A stretch of DNA of 24,936 nt. Source: an uncultured bacterium. GTDB taxonomy: Bacteria; Margulisbacteria; WOR-1; CAVSGV01. The DNA is taken from contig CAYHAH010000054.1 in NCBI GenBank assembly GCA_964354575.1, positions 1 to 24,936 of the forward strand, read 5' to 3'. Position 1 is the first letter of the stretch. The number at the start of each line of letters is the position of its first letter. Position numbers and translations under genes: made by a program. A model generated the notes under the pieces. It did no database searches, was not told the origin of the DNA, and was given only the letters and a program-made list of their open reading frames with translations. Below, piece by piece: positions 6,793 through 21,632 of this stretch.

Positions 6793-6832
6793 AAGGCCGA
6801 TCGGGCAGGGCGTCCGGTCGGCCTTTTTCTTT
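6793..6832 (+). terminator. Rho-independent terminator
   Basis: 14-bp stem AAGGCCGATCGGGC/GTCCGGTCGGCCTT (two G-U pairs), 5-nt loop, followed by TTTCTTT. Confidence 0.85.
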
Positions 6833-6835
6833 GCC

Positions 6836-6864
6836 TTGACAAAGACCTCCCCCGACCCTATAAT
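6836..6864 (+). promoter_or_regulatory. Consensus sigma70 promoter of the yceD-rpmF-fab operon
   Basis: Perfect TTGACA (6836-6841), 17-nt spacer, TATAAT (6859-6864). Confidence 0.9.
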
Positions 6865-6920: not shown

Positions 6921-7448
6921 ATGAAAATCGATGTCTCCGACCTGCTGAAGAGCTTCGGGGTTGAACTTAAGATCGACAGAAGCGAAACCCTATCTTTCCC
7001 TCCGGTTGGCGGGGCGGATAAGGAAGAAAGCCTAAACTTAACGTCCCCGGTTCAGGTCAAGCTTAAATTGATGAACACGGGAGACACGGTTTTAGTCTCC
7101 GGGACGCTTAAAACCAGAGTGAAGCTGTGCTGCTGCCGGTGCCTGAAGGAATTTGACTATCCTCTCAACATAGAAATAGAGGAAGAATACGGCAGGAAAA
7201 AAAGCGCGCTTCCGGGCTCAAAGGACGAAGAGATCGAGCTGAAGGAAAAAGACTTCGTTTTTGAGATAGGCGAAGACAACATAATAGACCTGGACGAAGC
7301 CATAAGACAGAATATAATTGTGTCCTTGCCGATCAAGCCGCTCTGCAGCAAGGCCTGCAAGGTAGCGGCGCCGGCCAGTGAGAATAAAAAAAGCATCGAT
7401 CCCAGGCTGGCGAAGCTGAAATCGTTTAAAATATTAGGAGGGAATTGA
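6921..7448 (+). CDS. yceD: YceD/DUF177 family protein
   Basis: CCRCL, IDLDEAIRQNII, PIKPLC, IDPRLAKL; canonical position before rpmF; SD AAGGAGG. Confidence 0.9.
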   Translation: MKIDVSDLLKSFGVELKIDRSETLSFPPVGGADKEESLNLTSPVQVKLKLMNTGDTVLVSGTLKTRVKLCCCRCLKEFDYPLNIEIEEEYGRKKSALPGSKDEEIELKEKDFVFEIGEDNIIDLDEAIRQNIIVSLPIKPLCSKACKVAAPASENKKSIDPRLAKLKSFKILGGN

Positions 7449-7449
7449 A

Positions 7450-7707
7450 ATGCCTGTACCGAAAAAAAGACACTCGAACACAAGGACCCGGACTAGACGC
7501 GCCAACTGGAAGCTGAAACCGCTGAACCTGGCGGATTGCCCGCAGTGCCACTCAAAGATCTTGTCCCATCATGCCTGCTCCGTATGCGGCACGTACAACG
7601 GAAGGATGGTCCTTAAAATAGAGACCGAGGAAAAGAAAAAACCTGCCAAAGGCAAGGCACATGAAGAAAAAGCCGAGGCAGGCAAAGAGGAGAAGCCCAA
7701 GCATTGA
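7450..7707 (+). CDS. rpmF: 50S ribosomal protein L32, zinc-ribbon type, with a charged C-terminal extension
   Basis: MPVPKKRHS...RR N-terminus, CPQC and CSVC; SD AGGAGG. Confidence 0.95.
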   Translation: MPVPKKRHSNTRTRTRRANWKLKPLNLADCPQCHSKILSHHACSVCGTYNGRMVLKIETEEKKKPAKGKAHEEKAEAGKEEKPKH

Positions 7708-8693
7708 TCCGCATAGCGCTGGACGCAATGGGCGGGGATCATGCGCCTTCTGAAACAATAAAAGGCGCGATCATGGCCATGTCCCTCCTGCCGAACATCG
7801 AAATTATCCTCATCGGACAGGAAGACCGCATATCAAAAGAACTGAAAAATAACAAACGCGTCTCCGGTATAAGCATTTATAATGCGAGCGAGGTCATCTC
7901 CACAAGTGAACATCCCATACAGGCGATAAAGCAGAAAAAAGATTCTTCCATCGTGAAAGGCGTGTCGCTGGTCAAAGAAGGAGGAGCGGATGCTTTTGTT
8001 TCCGCTGGCAATACCGGCGCCTTGATGGCTTCCTCCCTTTTCGGCCTCGGAAGAGTTTCCGGGATCGAAAGGCCCGCGCTGGCCACGATATTCCCCTCCA
8101 AAAAAGGAAGGGTGCTCCTGCTGGACATGGGCGCGAATGTTGACTGCAAGCCCAAGCACCTTGTCTATTTCGCAAAAATGGGGAGCGTTTACTCGGAACA
8201 TGTGCTGAAAATAAAAAATCCGAAGGTCGGGCTTTTGAACATCGGGGAGGAGCCCGAGAAAGGCAACGAGCTTACAACCTCCACCTATCCCCTGCTCAAG
8301 GGATCCGGCCTGAATTTTTCCGGAATGGTGGAAAGCAAGGAAGTATTCTCGGGAAAAGTGGATGTGGTCGTCTGCGACGGGTTCATCGGCAACCTGGTAT
8401 TGAAATTCGGGGAATCCACCGCGACTTTCATTTTTGAAATGCTGGCGGGCGAGCTGAAAAGCCATCCGCTTGCGGCAATGGTCGCGCTTTTCCTGATCCC
8501 CGCCCTGCTTCGGCTGAAAAAGAAAGTGGACTATGATGAATTCGGCGGCGCGGAGCTTCTGGGGATAAACGGCGTCGTCGTGAAAGCCCACGGAAGGGCG
8601 AAGTCGAAAGCCATAATGAACGCCATAAGGGTCGCCGCGGAATCAGTTGAAGGAAAAGTGGTCGATCACATTTCGAAGGTTGGTGAGGCTTAA
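7704..8693 (+). CDS. plsX: Phosphate acyltransferase PlsX
   Basis: IALDAMGGD, SAGNTGA, LLDMGANVD, GLLNIGEE, VKAHG; TTG start overlaps the rpmF stop (TTGA). Confidence 0.96.
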   Translation: MIRIALDAMGGDHAPSETIKGAIMAMSLLPNIEIILIGQEDRISKELKNNKRVSGISIYNASEVISTSEHPIQAIKQKKDSSIVKGVSLVKEGGADAFVSAGNTGALMASSLFGLGRVSGIERPALATIFPSKKGRVLLLDMGANVDCKPKHLVYFAKMGSVYSEHVLKIKNPKVGLLNIGEEPEKGNELTTSTYPLLKGSGLNFSGMVESKEVFSGKVDVVVCDGFIGNLVLKFGESTATFIFEMLAGELKSHPLAAMVALFLIPALLRLKKKVDYDEFGGAELLGINGVVVKAHGRAKSKAIMNAIRVAAESVEGKVVDHISKVGEA

Positions 8694-9659
8694 ATGAGAC
8701 GGGCTTCGATCATAGGCACCGGTTCTTATGTCCCCAGGAAGGTCCTGACGAATTTCGACATTGAAAAAATGGTCGACACAACCGATGAATGGATAATGGA
8801 GAGGACCGGCATCAGGGAGCGGAGGATCGCGGACGAGAGCGAAGCGACATCCGACCTCGCCTTTGAGGCGGCGCGCAGGGCCATTGAGTCGGCAAAGATC
8901 GATCCGAAGGAACTTGAACTGATCATCGTCGGCACTTCATCCCCGGACATGCTTTTCCCGTCCACCGCCTGCATCATCCAGGACAGGATCGGGGCGGTCA
9001 ACGCCGCCGCGTTCGACGCATCAGCGGCATGCACTGGATTCAATTACGCTCTTGCGGCAGCGGCAAGCTTCATTGAATCCGGCGTATATAATAATGTAAT
9101 GGTCATAGGAGCAGATACGCTGGCCAAATACCTGGACTGGACCGACAGGAACACATGCATTCTGTTCGGGGACGGAGCGGGCGCGGTCATTCTTAAGGCG
9201 GCCGATGGCGAAAGCGGGATCCTTGCCAGCTACCTGGGAGCGGAAGGAAGCGGAGGAAAATACCTTATCATGCCGGGGGGCGGCTCGCGCGATCCCGAAG
9301 CGAAAAAAAGGTTCATCCAGATGGACGGGAAGGAAGTTTTCAAGTTCGCCGTAAAGATCCTGCCGAAATGCGTCAAGGCGGTGCTTGAAAAAGCAAAACT
9401 GAAAACCTCCGACATCTCCCTGCTTATCCCTCACCAGGCAAACACAAGGATAATCGATTTCGCCTTGAGAAATTTGGGCTTGTCAAAAGAAAAGGTATAT
9501 GTTAACCTCGACCGATACGGAAACACCTCGGCAGCCTCAATCCCCATAGCGCTGGACGAAGCGTTAAAAGAAGGAAAGATAAAAAAAGGGGACATTGTCG
9601 TGCTTGCGGGATTCGGGGCGGGGCTGACATACGGCGCAAACGTCATAAAGTGGTCGTAA
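8694..9659 (+). CDS. fabH: Beta-ketoacyl-ACP synthase III
   Basis: Cys-His-Asn triad in AACTGF, IPHQAN and GNTSAAS; also GFGAGLT. Confidence 0.96.
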   Translation: MRRASIIGTGSYVPRKVLTNFDIEKMVDTTDEWIMERTGIRERRIADESEATSDLAFEAARRAIESAKIDPKELELIIVGTSSPDMLFPSTACIIQDRIGAVNAAAFDASAACTGFNYALAAAASFIESGVYNNVMVIGADTLAKYLDWTDRNTCILFGDGAGAVILKAADGESGILASYLGAEGSGGKYLIMPGGGSRDPEAKKRFIQMDGKEVFKFAVKILPKCVKAVLEKAKLKTSDISLLIPHQANTRIIDFALRNLGLSKEKVYVNLDRYGNTSAASIPIALDEALKEGKIKKGDIVVLAGFGAGLTYGANVIKWS

Positions 9660-9681: not shown

Positions 9682-10839
9682 ATGGATTACGGATTCACCG
9701 AAGAGCAGAAAATGGTCCAGGAACTGGCCAGGAAGATAGCTGTAGAGAAAGCGCTTCCCGTAAGGGCGGAACTTGACGAGAGCGGGGAATTTCCCTGGGA
9801 AGTCGTGAAAGCGCTCGCGGAATCAAACCTCACGGGGATCGGCATCGACGAAAAATACGGAGGGATCGGCGGAGGAACCCTTGAATACTGCATCGCTACC
9901 GAGGAGCTCAGCATCGTGTGCGGCGGCATCGCTCTTGCCTACGCGGCCACGGGCCTGGGGACAATGCCCATCATATTGTTCGGGAACGAAGAACAAAAAC
10001 AGAAATACCTTCCCGACATAGCCGCGGGGAAAAAGCTGGCCGCATTCGGCCTTACCGAGGCGAACGCCGGCTCGGACGCTGGAGGAATGCAGACGACCGC
10101 AAAAAAAGACGGGGATCATTTTATACTCAACGGCACGAAACAGTGGATAACCAACGGCGGCGAGGCGGAGACATACTCCGTGATCGCGATAACCGACAGG
10201 AAAAAGGGGTCGAGAGGCGCTTCCGCGTTCATACTCGAAAAAAACATGCCGGGATTCACTTTCGGCAAGAAAGAGAACAAGATGGGAATAAGGGCTTCCG
10301 CGACAAGGGAGCTGGTTTTCCAGGACTGCAAGGTCCACAAGAGCCAGATGCTCGGCAAGGAAGGAATGGGATTCATAGTCGCGATGAAGACGCTGGACAG
10401 GACAAGGCCGGGCATCGCGGCCCAGGCGGTTGGGATAGCCCAGGGAGCTCTTAATGAAGCCCTGAAATATTCGAGGCAGAGAGAGCAGTTCGGCGCCAAG
10501 ATAAGCACGTTCCAGGCGATACAGCACATGCTGGCTGATATGGCCACGCAGGTGGAGGCCGCAAGGTGTCTTGTGTACGCAACGGCGAGAGCGATCGACT
10601 CGGGATCCGCCGAAACATCAAAGATGTCCGCAATGTGCAAGCTCATGGCGTCGGATACCGCCATGAAAGTGACAACGGACGCGGTCCAGATACACGGGGG
10701 CTACGGCTACATGAAGGAATACCCCGTCGAGAAGATGATGAGGGACGCCAAGATCACCCAGATATACGAGGGCACCAACCAGATACAGCGCAACGTCATC
10801 GCCCTTGAACTGATCAAGGAGCTCGCAGCCAAGAAATAG
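9682..10839 (+). CDS. Acyl-CoA dehydrogenase (Bcd/CarC-like)
   Basis: FGLTEANAGSDA, NGTKQWITNG, KMGIRAS, QIHGGYGY, catalytic YEGTNQIQ; SD AGGAGGT. Confidence 0.93.
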   Translation: MDYGFTEEQKMVQELARKIAVEKALPVRAELDESGEFPWEVVKALAESNLTGIGIDEKYGGIGGGTLEYCIATEELSIVCGGIALAYAATGLGTMPIILFGNEEQKQKYLPDIAAGKKLAAFGLTEANAGSDAGGMQTTAKKDGDHFILNGTKQWITNGGEAETYSVIAITDRKKGSRGASAFILEKNMPGFTFGKKENKMGIRASATRELVFQDCKVHKSQMLGKEGMGFIVAMKTLDRTRPGIAAQAVGIAQGALNEALKYSRQREQFGAKISTFQAIQHMLADMATQVEAARCLVYATARAIDSGSAETSKMSAMCKLMASDTAMKVTTDAVQIHGGYGYMKEYPVEKMMRDAKITQIYEGTNQIQRNVIALELIKELAAKK

Positions 10840-10841
10840 CA

Positions 10842-11624
10842 ATGAACATCGTCGTCTGCATAAAACAGGTCCCCGGCACAACCCAGGTAAAGATCAATCC
10901 GGAAACCAACACGCTGATAAGGGAAGGCGTTGAGAGCATCATCAATCCCTTTGACGAGAACGCCGTTGAAGCGGCGCTTCAGTTGCGCGACAAGCACGGC
11001 GGAAAAGTAACCGTCATTACAATGGGCCCTCCGCAGGCCGTGAACGCATTGAAAGACACCATCGCGCTCGGCGTCGATGAAGCCATACTTGTTTCCGACA
11101 GGGCTTTTGCCGGCTCGGACACATGGGCAACATCATATACTCTCGCGTCGACAATAAAAAAACTCGGGGCTTTCGACCTTATCATCTGCGGCAAGCAGGC
11201 GATAGACGGCGACACCGCGCAGGTCGGGCCGGGCGTTTCCGAATTCCTCAAGATCCCCCAGGTCACTTTCGCGGTCGGAGTCGAGATAAATGACGGCGTC
11301 ATGAAAGTTAACCGGCTTCTCGAGGAAACGAACGAGATAGTTGAAGTGAAACTTCCGGCCCTTATCACGGTCGTAAAACAGATGAACACTCCAAGAATGC
11401 CTTCATTCAAGGGCAAGATCAAGGCAAAGAACGCGGCAATCCCGCAGTGGGGCGCAAAAGACATAAATGCCGATGAAAATTGCATAGGGCAAAAAGGCTC
11501 TCCCACTTCCGTCGTCAAGATATTCACCCCTCCTCCGAAAGGCGGCGGCGAGATCCTTCAGGGATCGGTTGACGAAATGGTTGATTCGCTGGTGAAAAAG
11601 CTCAGGGACAGGAAGGTCTGCTAA
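10842..11624 (+). CDS. etfB: Electron transfer flavoprotein beta subunit (bifurcating-type motifs)
   Basis: VCIKQVP, NPFDENAVEAA, GSDTWATS, CGKQAIDGDTAQVG. Confidence 0.95.
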   Translation: MNIVVCIKQVPGTTQVKINPETNTLIREGVESIINPFDENAVEAALQLRDKHGGKVTVITMGPPQAVNALKDTIALGVDEAILVSDRAFAGSDTWATSYTLASTIKKLGAFDLIICGKQAIDGDTAQVGPGVSEFLKIPQVTFAVGVEINDGVMKVNRLLEETNEIVEVKLPALITVVKQMNTPRMPSFKGKIKAKNAAIPQWGAKDINADENCIGQKGSPTSVVKIFTPPPKGGGEILQGSVDEMVDSLVKKLRDRKVC

Positions 11625-12821
11625 ATGGGCATCAGGATAATTAACGACAAGTGTTTCGGATGCAAGCTGTGCATAGCGGCGTGCCCTCTTGGCGCCATCA
11701 AGGTTGAAAATAAAAAAGCCGTAATAGACCTGGACAAGTGCAACCTGTGCGGAGCGTGCCCCTCTTCCTGCAAATTCGGCGCCATCGAGATAACAAAGGA
11801 AGACGTCAATGTTGTCGACAAGAGCCAATATAAAGGCATCTGGGTCTTCGCCGAACAGTACGAAGGCAATGTGCATCCGGTCGCGCTGGAGCTTCTCGGA
11901 GAGGGAAGGAGGCTCGCAAAAGATCTCGGCGTGGAACTGTGCGCGATGCTTCTCGGGGACTCAAGCGTAGAGAAAGAAACAAAAAAGCTCATAGAATACG
12001 GCGCGGACAAGGTTTATGTGGCGACCGCTCCGGAGCTCGCGCACTACACGACCCTCCCCTATTCAACGGTCATATCCGACATGATAAGGCAGTACAAGCC
12101 CGAGATAGTGCTTTTCGGCGCAACAACCACCGGAAGGGACCTTGCATCCCGGATAGCCGCGCGCATAAACGCGGGGCTTACGGCCGACTGCACCGGGCTT
12201 GCGATAGACAAGGAAACCAGGCTCCTTCAGCAGACGCGTCCCGCGTTCGGCGGCAATATCATGGCCACGATCATATGCAAGAACCACAGGCCGCAAATGT
12301 CCACCGTCAGGCCGAAGGTCTTTAAGCGCGCTGTTCCCGACAATTCAAGAAAGGGGCAGGTGATCAAGTTCGCTCCGAAGATAGGCCGGGACGATCTGAT
12401 CGTGAAGATCGTCGATGTTATAAAGGACGCAACGGTCAAGGTCAATCTGTCCGAAGCCGAAATAATAGTTTCCGGCGGAAGAGGGCTTCAGGCGCCGGAG
12501 AATTTCAAGCTTGTCGAAGAACTCGCCGAGGTGATAGGCGGAGCCGTGGGAGCTTCCCGCGCCACGGTCGATGCCGGCTGGATCTCCTCGCACCATCAGG
12601 TGGGACAGACGGGAAAGACGGTGTGCCCGAAACTCTACATAGCCGTCGGGATATCCGGAGCCATACAGCACCTCGCAGGCATGGGGTCATCCGAAATGAT
12701 CGTCGCGATCAACAAGGATCCGGACGCCCCGATATTCAAGGTAGCGACTTACGGCATCGTGGGCGACCTTTTCGAAGTTGTCCCGAAACTCACAAGTAAG
12801 CTGAAAGAGGTAAGAGGATAA
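11625..12821 (+). CDS. etfA: Electron transfer flavoprotein alpha subunit with N-terminal 2x[4Fe-4S] ferredoxin domain
   Basis: [12 protein letters not shown] and [11 protein letters not shown], followed by [37 protein letters not shown]. Confidence 0.95.
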
Positions 12822-12833
12822 AGTGTTGATTAT

Positions 12834-12900
12834 GGAACCTGAGGCTGAAAGCCTCGGTTCCAAATAAATATCGGAACCGCGACTTTTAGTCGCAGGTTCC
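12834..12900. repeat. Second REPIN-like element: inverted pair of 28-nt bulged hairpins
   Basis: GGAACC-T-GAGGCT-GAA-AGCCTC-GGTTCC (12834-12861), 11-nt spacer, then a reverse copy reading GGAACC-T-GCGACT-AAA-AGTCGC-GGTTCC on - (12873-12900). Confidence 0.75.
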
Positions 12901-12920: not shown

Positions 12921-13874
12921 GTGGCAAAAATAGCATTCGTATTTCCCGGGCAGGGTTCCCAGTATGTCGGCATGGGCAAAGACCTTGTGGCAAAATTCAG
13001 CTACACAAAAAAGTTCTTTGACGAGGCCAATGATTCTCTTGGCTTTGATCTTTCAAAGCTTTGCTTTGAGGGGCCGGATGAGGATCTCAAAAAAACGGAA
13101 AACACCCAGCCGGCGATATTGACGGTGTCAGCTATGTGCCTTGAAGCGCTGAAGTCATTCGGGAAAATAAGTGTCGAAGCGGCCGCGGGGCACAGCCTCG
13201 GGGAATATACCGCCCTGTATGCCGCGGGGTCCCTTAGCTTCAGGGACGCCGTAAAACTCGTCAATTCGCGCGGAAAGTTCATGCAGACAGCGGTGCCTCT
13301 CGGGGAAGGAACAATGGCCGCCATCCTGGGGCTTGATCATAATGTGGTGAAAGAAATATGCGCCAGGGCATCTTCAAAGGGAATAGTTGAAGCGGCCAAT
13401 ATCAACAGCCCTGGACAGATAGTTATATCGGGCAAGGCAGCCGGAGTTGCCGAAGCTTCCAGGCTGTGCAAGGAAGCCGGCGCAAAAAGGGTGATCGCGC
13501 TTCAGGTCAGCGCGCCTTTCCATTCAAGTTTGATGAAACCCGCGGCCGACCAACTGGCGGCGGAGCTTGATAAGATCAGCATAAAAGACGCTTCCATACC
13601 GGTGGTTTCAAACGTTACGGCGGATTACGTGACAGCCGCGGGCGCTATAAAAGAGCTGCTCATAAGACAGATGACATCCCCCGTCCTGTGGGAGGACTGT
13701 GTGAACAAAATGACGAACGACGGATTTGACACATTCATCGAGATCGGTCCGGGCAAAGTGCTTGCGGGGCTGATAAAGAAGGTCAATCCTAAAGCAAAGA
13801 TATATAATGTAGGCGATGCCGCGACCCTCGGGGATTTTTTGGGCAGCTGGCATCCGAGCGAAGGAGGTAAATAA
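12921..13874 (+). CDS. fabD: Malonyl CoA-ACP transacylase
   Basis: FPGQGSQ, TQPAIL, GHSLGEY, VSAPFHS, EIGPGKVL; GTG start. Confidence 0.96.
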   Translation: MAKIAFVFPGQGSQYVGMGKDLVAKFSYTKKFFDEANDSLGFDLSKLCFEGPDEDLKKTENTQPAILTVSAMCLEALKSFGKISVEAAAGHSLGEYTALYAAGSLSFRDAVKLVNSRGKFMQTAVPLGEGTMAAILGLDHNVVKEICARASSKGIVEAANINSPGQIVISGKAAGVAEASRLCKEAGAKRVIALQVSAPFHSSLMKPAADQLAAELDKISIKDASIPVVSNVTADYVTAAGAIKELLIRQMTSPVLWEDCVNKMTNDGFDTFIEIGPGKVLAGLIKKVNPKAKIYNVGDAATLGDFLGSWHPSEGGK

Positions 13875-13876
13875 AC

Positions 13877-14614
13877 ATGAAACTTAAAGGACGGGTAGCT
13901 TTTGTAACAGGCGCGGCTCAGGGAATAGGGAGATCGATTGCGGAAGCTCTGGCAAAAGAAGGAGCGGACGTGATAATTTCCGACATCAATATGGACGCGG
14001 CGAAAGTGACCGCGGGTGAGATCGGAAAACTCGGAGTGAAAGCGATCGCGCTGAAAACGAATGTTGCGGACGGCAGCGATGTCGCGGCTTCGGTCGAGCA
14101 GGCGGTCAAGGAATTCGGGAAAATAGACATATTGATAAACAACGCGGGAATAACAAGGGACGGACTCTTGATAAGGATGAAAGAGGATGACTGGGATGCG
14201 GTGATCTCGGTAAACCTTAGATCTATGTTCCTTTGCGCGAAAGCCATAGCCCCCTTGATGATGAAAAACAGGTGGGGTAGAATACTTAACATAGCATCGA
14301 TAGTTGGTGAAATGGGAAATTTTGGACAAGCGAATTACTCGGCTGCAAAAGCCGGGGCAATAGGCCTTACTAAAACGATAGCCAGGGAGCTTGCCTCCCG
14401 CGGCATTACCTGCAATGCCATAGCGCCCGGCTTTATCGACACGGCCATGACGCAAAAGCTATCAGACGATGTCAAGAAAAAATTAAGCGAACAGATCCCC
14501 CTTACGAGGCTGGGGGCTCCGGAAGATATAGCTAAAGCCGTCGTGTTCTTGTGCGCTGACGCGGACTATGTGACCGGGCAAGTGCTGAACGTAAACGGCG
14601 GCATGTACATGTAG
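13877..14614 (+). CDS. fabG: 3-oxoacyl-ACP reductase
   Basis: TGAAQGIG, NNAGITRD, YSAAK, NAIAPGFIDT, NVNGGMYM; SD AAGGAGGT. Confidence 0.96.
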   Translation: MKLKGRVAFVTGAAQGIGRSIAEALAKEGADVIISDINMDAAKVTAGEIGKLGVKAIALKTNVADGSDVAASVEQAVKEFGKIDILINNAGITRDGLLIRMKEDDWDAVISVNLRSMFLCAKAIAPLMMKNRWGRILNIASIVGEMGNFGQANYSAAKAGAIGLTKTIARELASRGITCNAIAPGFIDTAMTQKLSDDVKKKLSEQIPLTRLGAPEDIAKAVVFLCADADYVTGQVLNVNGGMYM

Positions 14615-14671: not shown

Positions 14672-14917
14672 ATGGATGAATCAAAAGTTTTCGATCAGGT
14701 GAAGAAGGTAGTGGTCGATCAGCTTGGCGTGTCTGAGGACGAAGTGAAAAGAGAAGCTTCCTTCGTTGATGACCTTGGCGCCGACTCGCTGGATACAGTG
14801 GAGCTGGTCATGGCGCTTGAAGAAGCGTTCACAATGGAGATACCGGACGAAGAAGCGGAAAAGATCAAGACAGTAGGCGATACCGTGAACTATGTTTTGT
14901 CTCACTCAAAAAAGTGA
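14672..14917 (+). CDS. acpP: Acyl carrier protein
   Basis: [18 protein letters not shown] phosphopantetheine motif; acidic, 81 aa. Confidence 0.97.
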
Positions 14918-14993
14918 GGTCCGTTTCGGGATGATTGGATCGGAGGTCCTTTAATGGGATTTCGAGAATTGATCTTTAGTGGGAGGAAAGAAC

Positions 14994-15953
14994 TTGGAGC
15001 TTCCTGAGCTTAAAATTGGGAACCTTGTGGCAAAAATACCTATAATACAGGGCGGCATGGCGGTCAAGATATCAACAGGCCTGCTTGCGGGGACCATTGC
15101 TGCCGCCGGCGCTATAGGCGTGATCGGCGCTTCCGGAATGGACCTTGCAGAGCTAAGGGAAGAGATAAGGAAGGCAAAAGAGATCGCGAAGGGCGGACTG
15201 GTCGGGATAAACATAATGTTCGCCGCGAGGGAATTCCTCGGAGCGGTGAACACCGCGATAAGCGAAAAGATCAGTTTCATAACGACCGGTGCCGGGTTCT
15301 CCAGGGACATCTTCAAGATAGGAAAGGAATCCAACACTCCCATACTCCCGATAGTGTCGTCCGCAAAGCTGGCGAAGACGGCGACAAAATGCGGCGCCGC
15401 CGCAATAGTCGTGGAAGGGGTGGAAGCGGGCGGGCACCTGGGAACGGACAGGTCGATCGAAGTCATACTTCCGGAAGTCAGGGCTGTCACCGACCTTCCG
15501 GTCATCGCGGCCGGCGGAATAACGGACGGCTGCGACATCGTAAAGATGTTCCGCCTCGGGGCGAACGGCGTCCAGATAGCGACGAGGTTCGTCCTGACGA
15601 ACGAGTGCGCCGCGGCTCCGGAATACAAAAAGATCTATCAAAACGCGAAAAAAGAGGATGTCGTGCTGATATCAAGTCCTGTCGGAATGCCGGGGCGGGC
15701 CATAAAAACGAAGTTCGTCGAAAAGATACTCAATAAGACAGCTCCAAAGCCGATCGGATGCGATTACTGTCTGAAAAAATGTTCCCTCGAATACTGCATT
15801 GTTCAGGCTCTCATCAATTCGCAGCAGGGCAACGTCGACGAGGGGATAGTCTTCTCGGGCGACCATATCTGGAAAATAAAGGACAAGAGGATACGCCCTG
15901 CGGTTGAAGTGTTGAGCGAGCTTGTGAAAGAGGCCGAAGAATGCAAAGAGTGA
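14994..15953 (+). CDS. FabK/FabX-like FMN oxidoreductase (nitronate monooxygenase superfamily) with C-terminal four-Cys motif
   Basis: LKIG...[49 protein letters not shown]. Start placed at TTG 14994, 7 nt after GGAGG. Confidence 0.85.
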
Positions 15954-17185
15954 GAGTGGTCGTAACAGGCCTTGGATGCGTCACCCCGATCGGGATCGGG
16001 AAAGACGCGTTCTGGAACAATTTGATCTCCGGCAAGTCGGGGATCGGCAGGATCACGCTTTTCGATCCGACAAATTTTTCCTGCCAGATAGCCGCGCAGG
16101 TGAAGGATTTTGATCCCTCCCTGTACATGGACAAAAAGGATTCAAGGCGGATCGTGCGCTTCATACAATTCGCCATTGCCGCGGCAAAGATCGCGATCGC
16201 GGACGCGAAACTGTCCATAACGCCCGAAAACGCGGATCGCGCCGGCACCCTGATAGGATCGGGCATTGGCGGAATAGCTTTCCTTGAGGAACAAGCCAGG
16301 GCTCTTTTTGAAAAAGGCCCGGATAAATGCTCGCCCTTCATGGTCCCGTGGATGATAACGAACATGGCTGCCGGGCAAGTCTCGATATTTCTCGGCCTGA
16401 AAGGGCCGAACAGCTGCACCGTTACCGCGTGCGCGACGGGAACTAATTCCATAGGCGACGCCGCCAGAATAATCGAGCGCGGAGATGCCGATATAATGGT
16501 CGCCGGCGGGGCGGAAGCTGCCATTTCACCTCTCGGCATTGCCGGGTTTGCCGCCGCGAGAGCCCTCTCAACAAGGAACAACGATCCAGAGCACGCATCC
16601 AGGCCCTTTGACAGGGAAAGGGACGGATTCGTGATGGGTGAAGGCGCCGGAATTGTCGTTCTTGAATCGCTCGAACACGCTGTCAGGCGGGGCGCGAACA
16701 TTTACGCCGAACTTGCCGGATACGGAATGTCAGGCGACGCGCACCACATCACTGCTCCAGCTCCCGGCGGGGAAGGAGCAGTAAGGGCAATGGCCCTGGC
16801 CATAAAGGATGCCGGGCTCAAGCCTGAAGACATAGATCACATAAACGCTCACGGAACATCGACAGACCTGAATGACAAGTACGAGACAATGGCGATCAAG
16901 GCACTCTTCGGCGATCGCGCGAAAAAGATAGCGGTAAGCTCCAACAAATCCATGGTAGGGCACATGCTCGGAGCCGCCGGGGCCGTGGAGTTCATCTCTA
17001 CGGTGCTGACGCTAAAAAACGACATTGTCCCGCCGACAATAAACCTTGAGAACCCTGATCCGGAATGCGATCTGGATTATGTGCCGCTTAAAGCAAGGAA
17101 AATGCTTGTGCGCGCCGCGATCTCAAATTCGTTCGGATTTGGAGGGCACAACGCAGTAATTGCTGCAAAAAAAATTAAGATCTAG
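15941..17185 (+). CDS. fabF: Beta-ketoacyl-ACP synthase II
   Basis: [41 protein letters not shown]. Confidence 0.96.
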
Positions 17186-20100
17186 TTTTATCGTCCGCGC
17201 AGGTCTTCTCGCGACCGGATGTCTCCTGTTTGTCTTGTTTTTAAATGCCCCCGTGTTTTCCGCCGAAACTTATCCGCAGATCGATGTTACGGGTTACAAG
17301 CAATATACGTACACCGGGCTAAATGTCGACGAAATGGCGAACCTGTTCCAGGCGCAGGCGATGCTGGGCGGGTATTACGCGGGCGGACCGTGGCAGGAAA
17401 AATTGAAACTGCGCATAATCGGAAAGTTGACCGAAAAACTCTCCGTGTCATATGATCTCGAACAGCAGCCTGACATGCCGGACAAATTTGACGTAAAGGT
17501 CAGATATGACAAGACGGAATTGACCTTCGGGGATTTTCAGGCTAACTTCAGCAAAAATGAATTTGTCTCGACTTCCAAGTATTTGAACGGCGTCATGGTC
17601 ACATCTTATGATAACTGGTACGATCTCACGTTCGTTCCTTCTTCAAAACTGAAAAGCGAGACGCAGCGTCTCGTGTCACAAAGAGGCAATAACACAAAGG
17701 GCCCTTATAACCTGGGTCACGTCTCTATAATCGAGGGGTCCGAAAGAATTGAGCTGAACAACGTCCTGCTCAATTCCGATTCGGATTATACAATAGACTA
17801 CTTTGCCGGAAAGATAACCTTCTCCAGAATACTCTCTCCTTACGATGAATTCAAATATTCTTACGAATTCACCAACCTGATCGACCTGTTCTTTCCGACT
17901 GTCTCAAAAAGGGATTTTGTCGGCTTGCAAACAAGCATAACGGTCAGTCCCACGCTCCTCGGCATGCCGGCTCAAAAAACGGAAAAATCAATAAAGAAAA
18001 GGACGGAGGTCTTTCCGACAAATGTTGAGCTCCCGTTGCTGCCGGCCATAAAAGGGACGGTGACCATTTCGCCGGAGGCGAAAGCCGGAGCATATGCAAT
18101 TTACATCAATGATGTTCCTGCCCTGACCGTTCATCAATTATCAGGCGAAACGCAGGCATACATAAGGGCGAATTCAATAAAGAAAAATCTTGATTTGATA
18201 ATAGGATCCGGCATAACGACATTCGAAATAACCGCCGTGCTCGTGAACGGGGAAAAGGTCCTTGCGGTGAACGGCCGTCCCATTATTACGGTGCTGGGAT
18301 CGGAAGCGAAATATTCCGGCCTGTCAATCAAAGACCTTGCGGAAAAGTGGAGGAGCGGCATCGCAGCGGGGCTTGAGGCATACATGGGAGTGGCCGCAAA
18401 GCCGGCCGCCCCCGAAGCGGCCCTCAAAGAAGAATATCAATGGGAAAGCACCGGGAATTACAGGCTGAAGGAATCTCCCGTCATTCCGTACAGCGAAAAG
18501 GTGACTTTCCTGGGGAGCCAGTTAAAAAAGCTGGAAGATTACATTATCAATTATCAAGACGGGTCGATCACGCTGCTTCGTCCCAACCTCCCCACCGCTA
18601 CAGAGCCGCTGATCATTGAATACCAATATATCGAAGTTACCGAGGAATCTCAGGTCCTGCCCGGCGCCGGAAAGGGTCCGTACGCCCTTTCTTTCAAGGA
18701 TATAGTTGAAGAAAGCGAAACGGTTACCGTGAATAATATTCCTTACATCAGGGAGCTGGATTACAAGATAGACTATGACCTCGGCAGGATCATGTTCTTT
18801 GCCGACATTCCGCAAACAGCAAAGATCGTTGTCAAATATAAACACCTTGTTACCACATCGCCTCCCCCTTCTCCCGCGCCTGTCGTGCCGCGTTCGTTAA
18901 ATGTCGGCGTCAGTTATTTGAAAGAATCCGGCCAAAGAGGGGCAACGCCGCCGAGCGTTGCCGCCATGGATACAATATCCGGCAGTGAAATAATAATCAA
19001 CAATAACACCATATATCTGGATTTAAGGCCCGTGACCTCCACCGGTGAGGTTGAGGTAAGAAGGAATAATATATTACAGGTATACGGCGTAGATTATGTG
19101 TTCCCCACGGTTGAGGCGTCCACGGGCATTGTTATCCCGGCGACAAAGCTCGCATACATAACCGATCCCGCGGACGTCTCTGACGGACTAAAGACGGGCA
19201 CGATCAAATTTCTCGTAGCGCCCGCCGGAACGGACGAAGTCACGGTCAGCTATGATTACAGCAAATGGTCCTCCGACCGCTACAGCGGCTCGGGGATCAG
19301 CAGCACCAGGACTTACTATCTGGGGGGTTTCCGGAACCTTGTCCCCGGCGCGGAAGAAGTGCAGATATGGAGAAAGAACGTCCCCAATCCCGTAATAAAG
19401 AGACTGACTAGGAACAGCAGCATCGAGGTTTTCGACGGGCATTATTTCATCAATTACACCGATCCGCCGAACATCACTTTCAACAATGATCCGATAGTCG
19501 TTGACGGCGAGACCTTCTACCTGAATGACATCAATTTCACCGTGATCTTCAAGTTCGTGGCGCAGTCAAGCGCTTCGGAGGCCCCCATATCGCACGATGT
19601 CATCGGATCCGATTTCAGCTTGCAGGTCGGCGATTATATGAAATTCGGGGGCGCGTTCGCCAGATCGAAAACCGACCAGATATTCACGACCGTAAGCACG
19701 AATGAGACGTTCAGCGGCGACGCGACGACCAAGATCTTTAACTTGAAGAGCCCCGGCCAGATCATTGACGGGAGCGAACAGATTTTCCTGAACGGCCAGA
19801 AGCTGAACAGGGACGATCAATATTCTTTCTTTTACAATGCGAATTCCTCGGGAAAGTACGGCGTCCTGACCTTTTTCATAATAACCCCCGTGACCGCCGA
19901 TGTCGTTTCCGTTGATTACAGTTACCAGAGCACTGCGGGGGTCGTGACCTCTGTAAGCGAAAAACAAGGCAGCGCATATAAACTTAACGGAATGATCAAG
20001 CCGCTTCCGAACGTGGAGTTTTCCGGCGATTACAAGAAAATAGACGCTGATTTCACTCCGATGGGCGGCACATCCATTCCCATAGGGAGCGATTTCAGTC

Positions 20101-21632
20101 ACGCATACACGAAAATAACCCCGTTCCCGAGTTTCTGGTCCAGTCTCTGGTTTTCCGGCGACATAAAAGAAAGCAACGTTCCCATAAGCAACTATCCCGA
20201 TAAATTCCTGCACGCCCACGACAGGAATCTGTCGGCCGGGTTCAACCCGCAGGGATTGGCGCAGGTTGACATGAATTTCAGGGGATACGACACCCTGGAC
20301 GATCTTCTGCCGGCAAGCACGACGCACAATAACGATTTTAAATCCTCTGCCTATTCGGTCAGCGTGGTTCCCCGTTCAGTGAGCTTGGGAGCGTTCAATT
20401 TTTCCAACAGGAGCAACGCCAGCAAGTCCCTGTCTTACACCGACACTGAGGACAAGACGCTGCCGAAGGATTCGATAACCGATTACTATCACACAAATAA
20501 CGTTTTTGGCTTCACCGAAAGGGCCAAATGGATACTTGATTATCAGGTGAACCTGCCGAGCACCATATCATACGAGGCGGGCAGCAGATCGCGGGGGAAA
20601 ACTGTGCAGAGGAATGAGGCCAACGACCTGAGCTCCAACTTTAATCTTGACCTTACCTTCACCGGCGTGAAAAGACTTTACACATACTGGAACAAAATAG
20701 GCCACAATGATTACGATTTCATATTGGGGACCTCAAAATCGACCATTAACGAAACTTATCACGCCGACTTTGTGCCGATAGATCAATTAACCACAAGCGT
20801 GGATCACAACCGCCAGGAAATTCCGACAGTCACCACCGCTTACGGAAACCCGAAGACCGAGCGCTCGTCCGCAGATATCAGGCTCACTCCCTTCTCAACG
20901 ACATTGCTCGGCTGGTCGGGATCGATAGACGATTCTCTTCAGGAGAACGGCGCGATGGCTTCCGGCAATGCGAACGCGTATTCCATTTCACATACGCCTA
21001 TTTCAGCCTCAAATTACAAATTGACAACAGCATATAATCTTTCAACAAGCTTAAGGAACGGCCCGGTGGGGACCGCAGAGGTGACTACGGACACAAGATC
21101 GTTCAGCCAGGACTACAACCTGACCGTGACCCCCTCCAGCATCTTGACAATAACTTCGGGTCTCGGGCAGGAGGACTACACAAATATAAATAATGCTCCC
21201 ACCTCCCCTGTCAACACCAAATCCCAAAGCCAGACGATAAGGGCCGGATCTTCCTATAAAGCGTTAACCGACCTGAACCTCTCCGGAAATTACAGCGTAA
21301 AGGTCACGAGAACGCCTGACCAGAGCGCCCACAAGTCATTGGTCGACGCGCACGCCGTTTACATGGTGTTCACATACGGAACCTTGAACTACGACTGGTC
21401 GCAGGAGGATAACGGCGGTGAAATTCTCGGCGGCTCTTTCGTTGACCAGGATTTCACGAAGATATTGCAGTCGCTCTCCCTGAATGTAGTGATGCCGCAG
21501 AGCAATCAAATGATCCTCTCCAGCGTCGTGCTCAGGGCCGCCATCAAGTGGGCGGACTTCAAGGACAGGAACACTCCCGCGAACAGCTTCCAGGCAACGC
21601 TTCTCTCGTTTGAAGGAACGTTCAACTTCTAG
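17160..21632 (+). CDS. 1490-aa predicted outer-membrane beta-barrel protein with internal SE-x-V...DY-x-IDY-x2-G-x-I-x-F repeats
   Basis: Signal peptide ending ...PVFSA; long C-terminal run of amphipathic beta-strands; terminal ...FEGTFNF. The TTG start is uncertain (GGAGG 13 nt upstream). Confidence 0.72.

Follow-up and report, generated by a model that had tools for sequence, protein, structure and literature searches.

An acyl-CoA dehydrogenase-Etf module in the fatty acid operon of Margulisbacteria as a candidate enoyl reductase

Introduction

Which enzyme reduces the enoyl-acyl carrier protein (enoyl-ACP) intermediates of type II fatty acid synthesis (FAS II) in uncultured Margulisbacteria of the class WOR-1? 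The question is raised by a stretch of 24,936 nucleotides (the window), contig C54 of a 0.9-Mb metagenome-assembled genome (MAG) that is 71% complete, in which a gene for a protein of the acyl-CoA dehydrogenase (ACAD) family, acd, and genes for the two subunits of an electron transfer flavoprotein (Etf), etfB and etfA, stand inside the fatty acid operon between fabH and fabD. To our knowledge, four families of enoyl-ACP reductases are known, FabI, FabL, FabV, and FabK, and such reductases are major antibiotic targets.

An original prediction, made from the letters of this stretch, likened the three genes to caffeyl-CoA reductase CarCDE and clostridial Bcd-EtfAB and proposed either that the complex is an electron-bifurcating enoyl-ACP reductase, a role of which it knew no description, or that it makes saturated acyl-CoA primers for the adjacent FabH. 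Our analysis leads us to favor, on balance, the view that Acd-EtfBA serves these bacteria as their FAS II enoyl reductase, substituting for a conventional enoyl-ACP reductase. That it adds a fifth class to the FAS II enoyl-ACP reductases, unrelated to the other four, and is also electron bifurcating is a tentative proposal, to which we give somewhat less than an even chance. A full-text literature search found no paper on an ACAD/Etf enoyl-ACP reductase, as the original prediction had supposed. What is new here is that the FabK-family gene of the operon, which we call NMO4C, is FabX-like and excludable as the reductase, and that conventional reductases and acd-etfBA are complementary across the phylum.

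Results

NMO4C, a gene of the nitronate monooxygenase (NMO) family, lies between acpP and fabF, and an alignment scan for it, with one genome per species, gave 80 loci. Seventeen of these, from Margulisbacteria, have the order fabH-acd-etfB-etfA-fabD-fabG-acpP-NMO4C-fabF, and 21, from Firmicutes, have the order fabH-FabK-fabD-fabG-acpP-NMO4C-fabF; acd-etfBA is therefore placed where a bona fide enoyl reductase sits in colinear operons. In none of the 80 loci does fabH directly adjoin fabD together with NMO4C; in 30 loci, from Firmicutes such as Desulfotomaculum, Pelotomaculum, and others, NMO4C stands apart from fab genes, and 12 loci are broken off at a contig end. Operons with both FabK and NMO4C include those of Pelosinus propionicus (L144), Thermincola ferriacetica (L185), Heliorestis acidaminivorans (L187), Sporomusaceae, and Syntrophomonadaceae. 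The Firmicutes genes in the slot score 473, 488, and 500 bits and pass the FabK cut-off of 453, against 214 bits for NMO4C of the same operons, and no close acd ortholog was found in five FabK-bearing Firmicutes genomes, the best match being 58% identical (Pelosinus). NMO4C is kept beside either FabK or acd-etfBA and therefore appears to have a constant, separate function.

The phylum-wide distribution points in the same direction. Across 146 genomes, an acd ortholog is present in 83 and FabI (41 to 49% identity to E. coli FabI) in 51, and no genome has both. Among the good genomes with neither, two (G068 and G041) have a FabL-like short-chain dehydrogenase/reductase (SDR) and one (G113) has a FabK-type gene that lacks the cysteines of NMO4C and scores 279 bits. 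NMO4C accompanies acd-etfBA in the class (62 of 64 genomes) and in families f45 to f48, it accompanies FabI in family f50, with the operon rpmF-plsX-fabH-fabD-fabG-acpP-NMO4C-fabF, and it is found with the Cys-less FabK-type gene in G113 and with the FabL-like SDR in G068.

Three good genomes have acd-etfBA as their sole candidate reductase, and none of the three has NMO4C. In G106 (97% complete), the operon is fabH-acd-etfBA-fabD-fabG-acpP-fabF and the whole genome is without an NMO gene; no other sampled fab operon has acd-etfBA and lacks NMO4C. For G046 (94% complete), the fetched portion of the contig shows fabD-fabG-acpP-fabF, and G064 (90% complete) has the full rpmF-plsX-fabH-fabD-fabG-acpP-fabF operon; in both, acd-etfBA lies elsewhere and no NMO, FabI, or FabL gene was found in the genome. 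In a FabF gene tree rooted at its midpoint, the acd-less families f49 (with FabK) and f50 (with FabI) form a clade (100/99) that groups with the acd-bearing family f48 at 92/92, which is under the confidence mark of the tree, and acd is found in all the remaining rows of the enclosing clade (98/95). The pattern is suggestive of a loss of acd-etfBA that was accompanied, in sister lineages, by two different conventional reductases.

Searches for the known reductases gave a consistent picture within the class. No E. coli-FabI-like gene and no FabL-like gene was found in 65 class genomes, and no NMO-family gene was found beyond the operon copy. FabV (PF12241) was found in none of the 146 genomes, a search that had no positive control, as 14 control genomes likewise gave no match. 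The extra SDRs of five near-complete class genomes were considered as FabI or FabL and rejected, as neither family is among them. An enoyl reductase of the medium-chain dehydrogenase/reductase type (PF00107) was likewise rejected as a shared alternative: there is none in G005, G106, or G046, one in G012, inside a 785-residue reading frame, and four in G064.

Pathways that would use the module on CoA esters were also looked for. A domain search agrees that the window has no crt, hbd, thl, or CoA-activation genes, and among 41 relatives crotonase (ECH_1) and true thiolase were each found in none and a genuine 3-hydroxyacyl-CoA dehydrogenase (3HCDH; hbd) in only three, which therefore argues that no butyrate pathway or β-oxidation supplies or consumes acyl-CoA. 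The assembly contains a single ACAD, and FabZ is present. The two genome searches that the original prediction had proposed thus leave the class with no known enoyl reductase and without crotonase or thiolase, FabV being subject to the limit given above.

The module itself is close to known bifurcating complexes. Acd (9682 to 10839; this and the other features described between 6793 and 17185 are on the forward strand) matches all three ACAD domains, N-terminal, middle, and C-terminal (PF02771, PF02770, and PF00441), and its catalytic residue Glu363, in the motif IYEGT, aligns with that of 5OL2_C and 4L1F_A. Its best solved match is Clostridioides difficile Bcd (5OL2_C, 425 bits), and CarC is a weaker match at 341 bits. 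EtfB (10842 to 11624), the small Etf subunit, has an ETF domain with the motifs DGDTAQVG (residues 122 to 129), invariant in 20 of 20 relatives, and DTWAT (residues 93 to 97), and matches CarD (6FAH_B) with 267 bits; its top solved matches are all bifurcating Etfs. Garcia Costas and colleagues are said to have tied an EtfB motif of the DGDTAQVG kind, in 2017, to binding of flavin adenine dinucleotide (FAD) and not AMP. EtfA (11625 to 12821), the large subunit, combines an ETF_alpha domain (PF00766), with RPAFGG at residues 205 to 210, and an N-terminal 2x[4Fe-4S] ferredoxin domain (Fer4; residues 1 to 60, nucleotides 11625 to 11804) with two CxxCxxCxxxC motifs at residues 10 to 20 and 39 to 49. 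It matches CarE (6FAH_A) with 456 bits along the whole protein, including the ferredoxin domain, against only 179 bits for human ETF-alpha, and its best matches are all bifurcating Etfs. EtfB and EtfA thus appear, by their motifs and closest matches, to be of the bifurcating type and not of the AMP-site, nonbifurcating type. The motifs that had been read from the window are all present, and the likeness to CarCDE and Bcd-EtfAB in gene order and domains is borne out, 6FAH_A, 6FAH_B, and 5OL2_C being the closest solved chains. Acd-EtfBA shows no homology to FabI, FabL, FabV, or FabK, its families being ACAD and ETF. A co-fold of the Acd dimer with AcpP, run without controls, scored 0.00, which speaks neither for nor against binding of AcpP.

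These genes are conserved well beyond the window. Acd is present in 41 of 41 relatives, at 71 to 96% identity and as a single copy in 39, and 20 of 20 sampled genomes from 12 families retain the order fabH-acd-etfB-etfA-fabD...acpP-NMO4C-fabF, one of these loci ending at a contig end directly after etfA. The worry that the arrangement might be unique to this genome is thereby laid to rest. DNA of acd is present in wetland and sediment metagenomes, and a run search listed no transcriptome sequencing (RNA-seq) runs with acd.

Some relatives show irregularities in these genes. In three, unrelated genes, several of them on the opposite strand, are inserted inside the module (L030 2730 to 7013; L033 10152 to 12591 and 14584 to 16807; L034 5301 to 9010); they include amidohydrolase, AAA/DUF4143 ATPase, protein kinase, and saccharopine-dehydrogenase-like genes and Orn/DAP-decarboxylase genes, and because of the opposite-strand inserts the trio there is not in one transcript with the fab genes. 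In G001 (C6:340628-346901), acd and NMO4C are both broken by several stop codons, which reflect either decay of both genes or errors of a six-contig, possibly long-read, assembly. The fabG gene of G005 has one in-frame TGA.

The original prediction was correct that FabI, FabL, and FabV are not in the window but overlooked NMO4C (14979 to 15953) in the same operon, which belongs to the family that includes FabK. Whether NMO4C is simply a FabK is a question that bears directly on the role of Acd-EtfBA. It scores 189 bits against the FabK equivalog TIGR03151, whose cut-off is 453, and the only PDB match of its last 95 residues is Helicobacter pylori FabX (E = 2.6e-7), with no FabK structure among the matches. 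The FabX-type enzyme of Neisseria gonorrhoeae is UfaA. The cysteines of NMO4C, C261-x2-C264-x3-C268-x4-C273 (nucleotides 15759 to 15797), align with the [4Fe-4S] ligands C300, C304, C308, and C320 of FabX, and its catalytic His153 aligns with FabX H182; neither His153 nor any of the four cysteines varies among 17 class sequences or among 12 phylum-wide ones. For an AlphaFold model of NMO4C (pLDDT 91), FabX is the top fold match (template modeling [TM] score 0.86 to 0.88; 34% identity), and FabKs follow at 0.81 to 0.85. A plain FabK, which would undercut the enoyl-reductase role of Acd-EtfBA, was therefore rejected on the strength of the low FabK score, the C terminus matched by FabX alone, the invariant cysteines, and the 473 to 500 bits reached by true FabKs.

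FabX, a decanoyl-ACP dehydrogenase/isomerase, is responsible for the cis double bond in unsaturated fatty acids; H. pylori has it in addition to FabI. FabX has been delimited by >50% identity to the H. pylori enzyme (Zhou et al. 2021), whose ACP-contact residues include R164 and T130. At 34% identity NMO4C lies below that level, and the R164 region is deleted in its alignment with FabX, so that, judged by sequence, NMO4C is not a classical FabK and is FabX-like with two departures from FabX. Its most likely role, as its likeness to FabX would predict, is to form the cis-3 double bond of unsaturated fatty acids. In indirect support, no FabM-type gene (ECH family) was found among the 41 relatives, and G005 and G012 have one FabZ-family gene each. 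In these two genomes (G005:C1:1351834-1352202 and G012:C1:1213574-1213942), the single FabZ domain lies inside an open frame of 430 to 457 residues, as would fit a fusion protein such as, possibly, LpxC-FabZ. A second FabA/FabZ-family gene (G106:C44:11022-11387; locus L059) is present in G106, the genome without NMO4C, and may offer it another way to make unsaturated fatty acids. In family f44 (G098; L066 13214 to 14284), the slot between acpP and fabF holds a longer NMO protein of about 357 residues with FabX-like insertions, which links the short four-Cys proteins with canonical FabX.

The twelve genes from yceD to fabF are predicted to form one FAS II operon. A sigma-70-type promoter (6836 to 6864; TTGACA-17-TATAAT, a 12/12 match) sits just past a terminator-like hairpin that closes the upstream unit (6793 to 6825; a 14-bp stem and then a T-run) and 5' of yceD (6921 to 7448; PF02620), which is followed by rpmF for ribosomal protein L32 (7450 to 7707; PF01783), plsX (7704 to 8693; PF02504), and fabH (8694 to 9659; NF006829, 462 bits). 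Then come acd, with AGGAGG 5' of its start codon, etfB, and etfA, and after them fabD (12921 to 13874; TIGR00128, 380 bits), fabG (13877 to 14614; TIGR01830, 330 bits), acpP (14672 to 14917; PF00550, with its DSL motif at residue 38), NMO4C, and fabF (15941 to 17185; TIGR03150, 655 bits); the scores given for fabH, fabD, fabG, and fabF exceed their cut-offs. The open reading frame (ORF) coordinates agree with the earlier spacing of 22, 2, and 0 nucleotides between acd, etfB, and etfA and their upstream genes, and a site scan agrees that no evident promoter or terminator separates acd from plsX-fabH: no terminator-like site with a T-run lies between the module and the fab genes, and promoter-like sites are no more frequent than in shuffled sequence.

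The sole sizeable gap, of 99 nucleotides between etfA and fabD, holds two stable hairpins (12834 to 12900; fold z = -5.0), which are tandem palindromes (GGAACC...GGTTCC) of 28 nucleotides each (12834 to 12861 and 12873 to 12900). They belong to a dispersed family resembling repetitive extragenic palindromes (REP-like), of which the 0.9-Mb assembly has 11 hairpin copies, and they were rejected as a dedicated terminator or regulator because they are copies of a genome-dispersed palindrome. Tandem pairs of the palindrome are also found on contigs C100 and C125. Downstream, an ORF of 1490 residues (17160 to 21632) overlaps the end of fabF by 26 nucleotides and has no Pfam domain over cut-off. Its homologs lie 3' of fabF in several sampled relatives, at 39 to 68% identity, and one is also found on a contig labeled Omnitrophota (L056), where a class-III aminotransferase gene follows.

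Discussion

Our findings lead us to propose that Acd, with its FAD, would reduce the trans-2-enoyl thioester delivered by FabZ in every round of elongation, with electrons from NADH passed on by an Etf carrying two FADs. If the complex works as Bcd-EtfAB and CarCDE do, a further pair of electrons from NADH would travel uphill through the ferredoxin domain of EtfA to ferredoxin in flavin-based electron bifurcation, so that per round two NADH would be oxidized, one enoyl-ACP reduced, and one reduced ferredoxin delivered. We infer enoyl-ACP as the substrate of Acd, the direction of the reaction, and the co-reduction of ferredoxin, the last of which is made probable by the bifurcating type of the Etf and its CarE-like ferredoxin domain. 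A fermentative life that depends on hydrogenases, Rnf, and bifurcating complexes has been described for Margulisbacteria and Saganbacteria (PMC6349859), and such a metabolism would therefore have a use for reduced ferredoxin; that generated during lipid synthesis might be returned to the hydrogenase/Rnf economy. NMO4C would act beside this reductase as a separate FabX/UfaA-like enzyme with flavin mononucleotide (FMN) and [4Fe-4S] that makes the cis-3 double bond, and one may speculate that this FabX-type enzyme finds its missing redox partner for anaerobic conditions in the EtfA ferredoxin domain.

The enoyl-reductase half of the original proposal is thus strongly backed, on comparative grounds, by FabK in the same slot, by the mutual exclusion with FabI, by the unfound butyrate and β-oxidation genes, and by the genomes in which acd-etfBA is the sole candidate, once the overlooked FabK-family gene had been excluded. 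Several observations weigh against it. We know of no ACAD-Etf complex that reduces enoyl-ACP. Acd appears very near to CoA-specific Bcd and, at 425 bits to 5OL2_C, looks like an ordinary Bcd, and inspection of the Acd/Bcd alignment revealed no obvious ACP-docking adaptation. A 75%-identical acd-etfBA stands alone, apart from fab genes, in a spore-forming Firmicute. Most acd-bearing genomes carry NMO4C, which as a member of the FabK superfamily could in principle be a reductase, and two genomes (G110 and G063) have a FabK-type gene in addition to acd-etfBA. The split of 83 genomes with acd, 51 with FabI, and none with both reflects few evolutionary events, because the genomes are related MAGs, and it tracks anaerobic versus aerobic lifestyle as well. 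With regard to bifurcation, EtfA of family f11 (L031 and L032) and of L056 has 335 to 344 residues and lacks the N-terminal 2x[4Fe-4S] domain in an otherwise identical operon, so that this domain is either dispensable there or supplied by a separate protein. Moreover, a previous study took the genes to be Bcd/EtfAB, questioned on domain grounds whether they bifurcate, and left their position in the fab operon unmentioned (Matheus Carnevali et al. 2019; PMC6349859). That doubt appears to be unsupported by the motifs and structure matches reported here.

The alternative that survives best, though we regard it as unlikely, is that NMO4C is the real enoyl-ACP reductase, a FabK variant with a [4Fe-4S] cluster in place of the NAD(P)H site, and that Acd-EtfBA only feeds it electrons, by way of the EtfA ferredoxin domain or of free ferredoxin, or is unrelated to it. 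NMO4C is in the FabK/FabX superfamily, its fold fits FabK nearly as well as FabX, it co-occurs with acd-etfBA in almost the whole class, and a surface iron-sulfur cluster beside a ferredoxin-fused Etf is suggestive. In Fusobacterium nucleatum, where FabX occurs alongside FabK, overexpression of FabX partly offset inhibition of FabK (PMC11091888), an observation that also counts against the role we assign to Acd-EtfBA. However, wherever NMO4C occurs without acd-etfBA, another reductase is present, namely, FabI in f50, the FabK-type gene in G113, the FabL-like gene in G068, or true FabK in the 21 Firmicutes loci; G106, G046, and G064 have acd-etfBA and FAS II genes without any NMO gene; and it is with acd-etfBA, not with NMO4C, that FabK alternates in the operon slot.

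Similarly unlikely, and marginally more so than the NMO4C alternative, is that Acd-EtfBA acts on CoA esters only, either to supply primers to FabH, as the original prediction had suggested as its second option, or as a Bcd-type fermentative redox sink, the assumption of Matheus Carnevali et al., with its placement among the fab genes serving co-regulation. The high similarity of Acd to genuine Bcd and to AcrC, the position of acd next to fabH, and the close homolog that stands alone in a Firmicute would fit this explanation. Nevertheless, with crotonase and thiolase unfound and hbd rare there is no apparent route to enoyl-CoA, the proteins with which the module alternates, FabI, FabK, and FabL, reduce enoyl groups and do not make primers, and the class would be left without any enoyl reductase; primer supply for FabH thus finds no support here. 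We consider it very improbable that Acd-EtfBA works oxidatively, as an anaerobic "backtracking" dehydrogenase in the formation of unsaturated fatty acids, converting decanoyl-ACP back to trans-2-decenoyl-ACP with electrons passed through Etf and ferredoxin by confurcation to NAD+ and with NMO4C isomerizing the product, as acd-etfBA and NMO4C do share one operon but each also occurs in genomes without the other, FabZ already gives trans-2-decenoyl-ACP and makes the dehydrogenation unneeded, and the enoyl-reduction step would be left unfilled and the complementarity with FabI unexplained.

If Acd-EtfBA is indeed a bifurcating enoyl-ACP reductase, it would be the first case of flavin-based electron bifurcation within an anabolic core pathway. 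Membrane-lipid synthesis would then be partly energy conserving in strict anaerobes, estimates of lipid cost for energy-limited anaerobes would change, and the "missing" reductases of many uncultured phyla would be explained. In addition, our results indicate that fab operons of strict anaerobes, among them cultured Firmicutes, encode a FabX-like [4Fe-4S] enzyme. This bears on how unsaturated fatty acids are formed in anaerobes that have neither FabA nor FabM and on what replaces O2 as the acceptor of FabX, and the cultured Firmicutes with both FabK and NMO4C (L144, L185, and L187) are tractable organisms for studying the function of NMO4C.

Compared with known systems, Acd-EtfBA shares with Bcd-EtfAB of C. 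difficile (5OL2) and Acidaminococcus fermentans (4L1F/4KPU) the same three proteins, the ACAD fold, the catalytic Glu, and the bifurcating-type motifs. In contrast to Bcd-EtfAB, EtfA of the window has the extra 2x[4Fe-4S] domain, the genes lie in a FAS II operon and not with crt, hbd, and thl, and enoyl-ACP of every chain length, instead of crotonyl-CoA, is proposed as the substrate. CarCDE of Acetobacterium woodii (6FAH) has the same gene order and a ferredoxin-fused EtfA, but there are no caffeate-activation genes here and the pathway context is another one. FabK, the FMN- and NADH-dependent enoyl-ACP reductase II (TIGR03151; 2Z6I and 7L00), occupies the same slot between fabH and fabD in Firmicutes and would do the same job, although it is a single polypeptide without ferredoxin coupling and without homology to Acd-EtfBA. 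NMO4C, for its part, shares with H. pylori FabX (7E1Q) and UfaA the NMO TIM barrel, the catalytic His, and a C-terminal four-Cys subdomain; it differs from FabX in being about 40 residues shorter, without the FabX insertions that include the R164 ACP-binding region, in its cysteine spacing (Cx2Cx3Cx4C versus Cx3Cx3Cx11C), and in its host, which is presumed to be strictly anaerobic; FabX, by contrast, is known to use O2.

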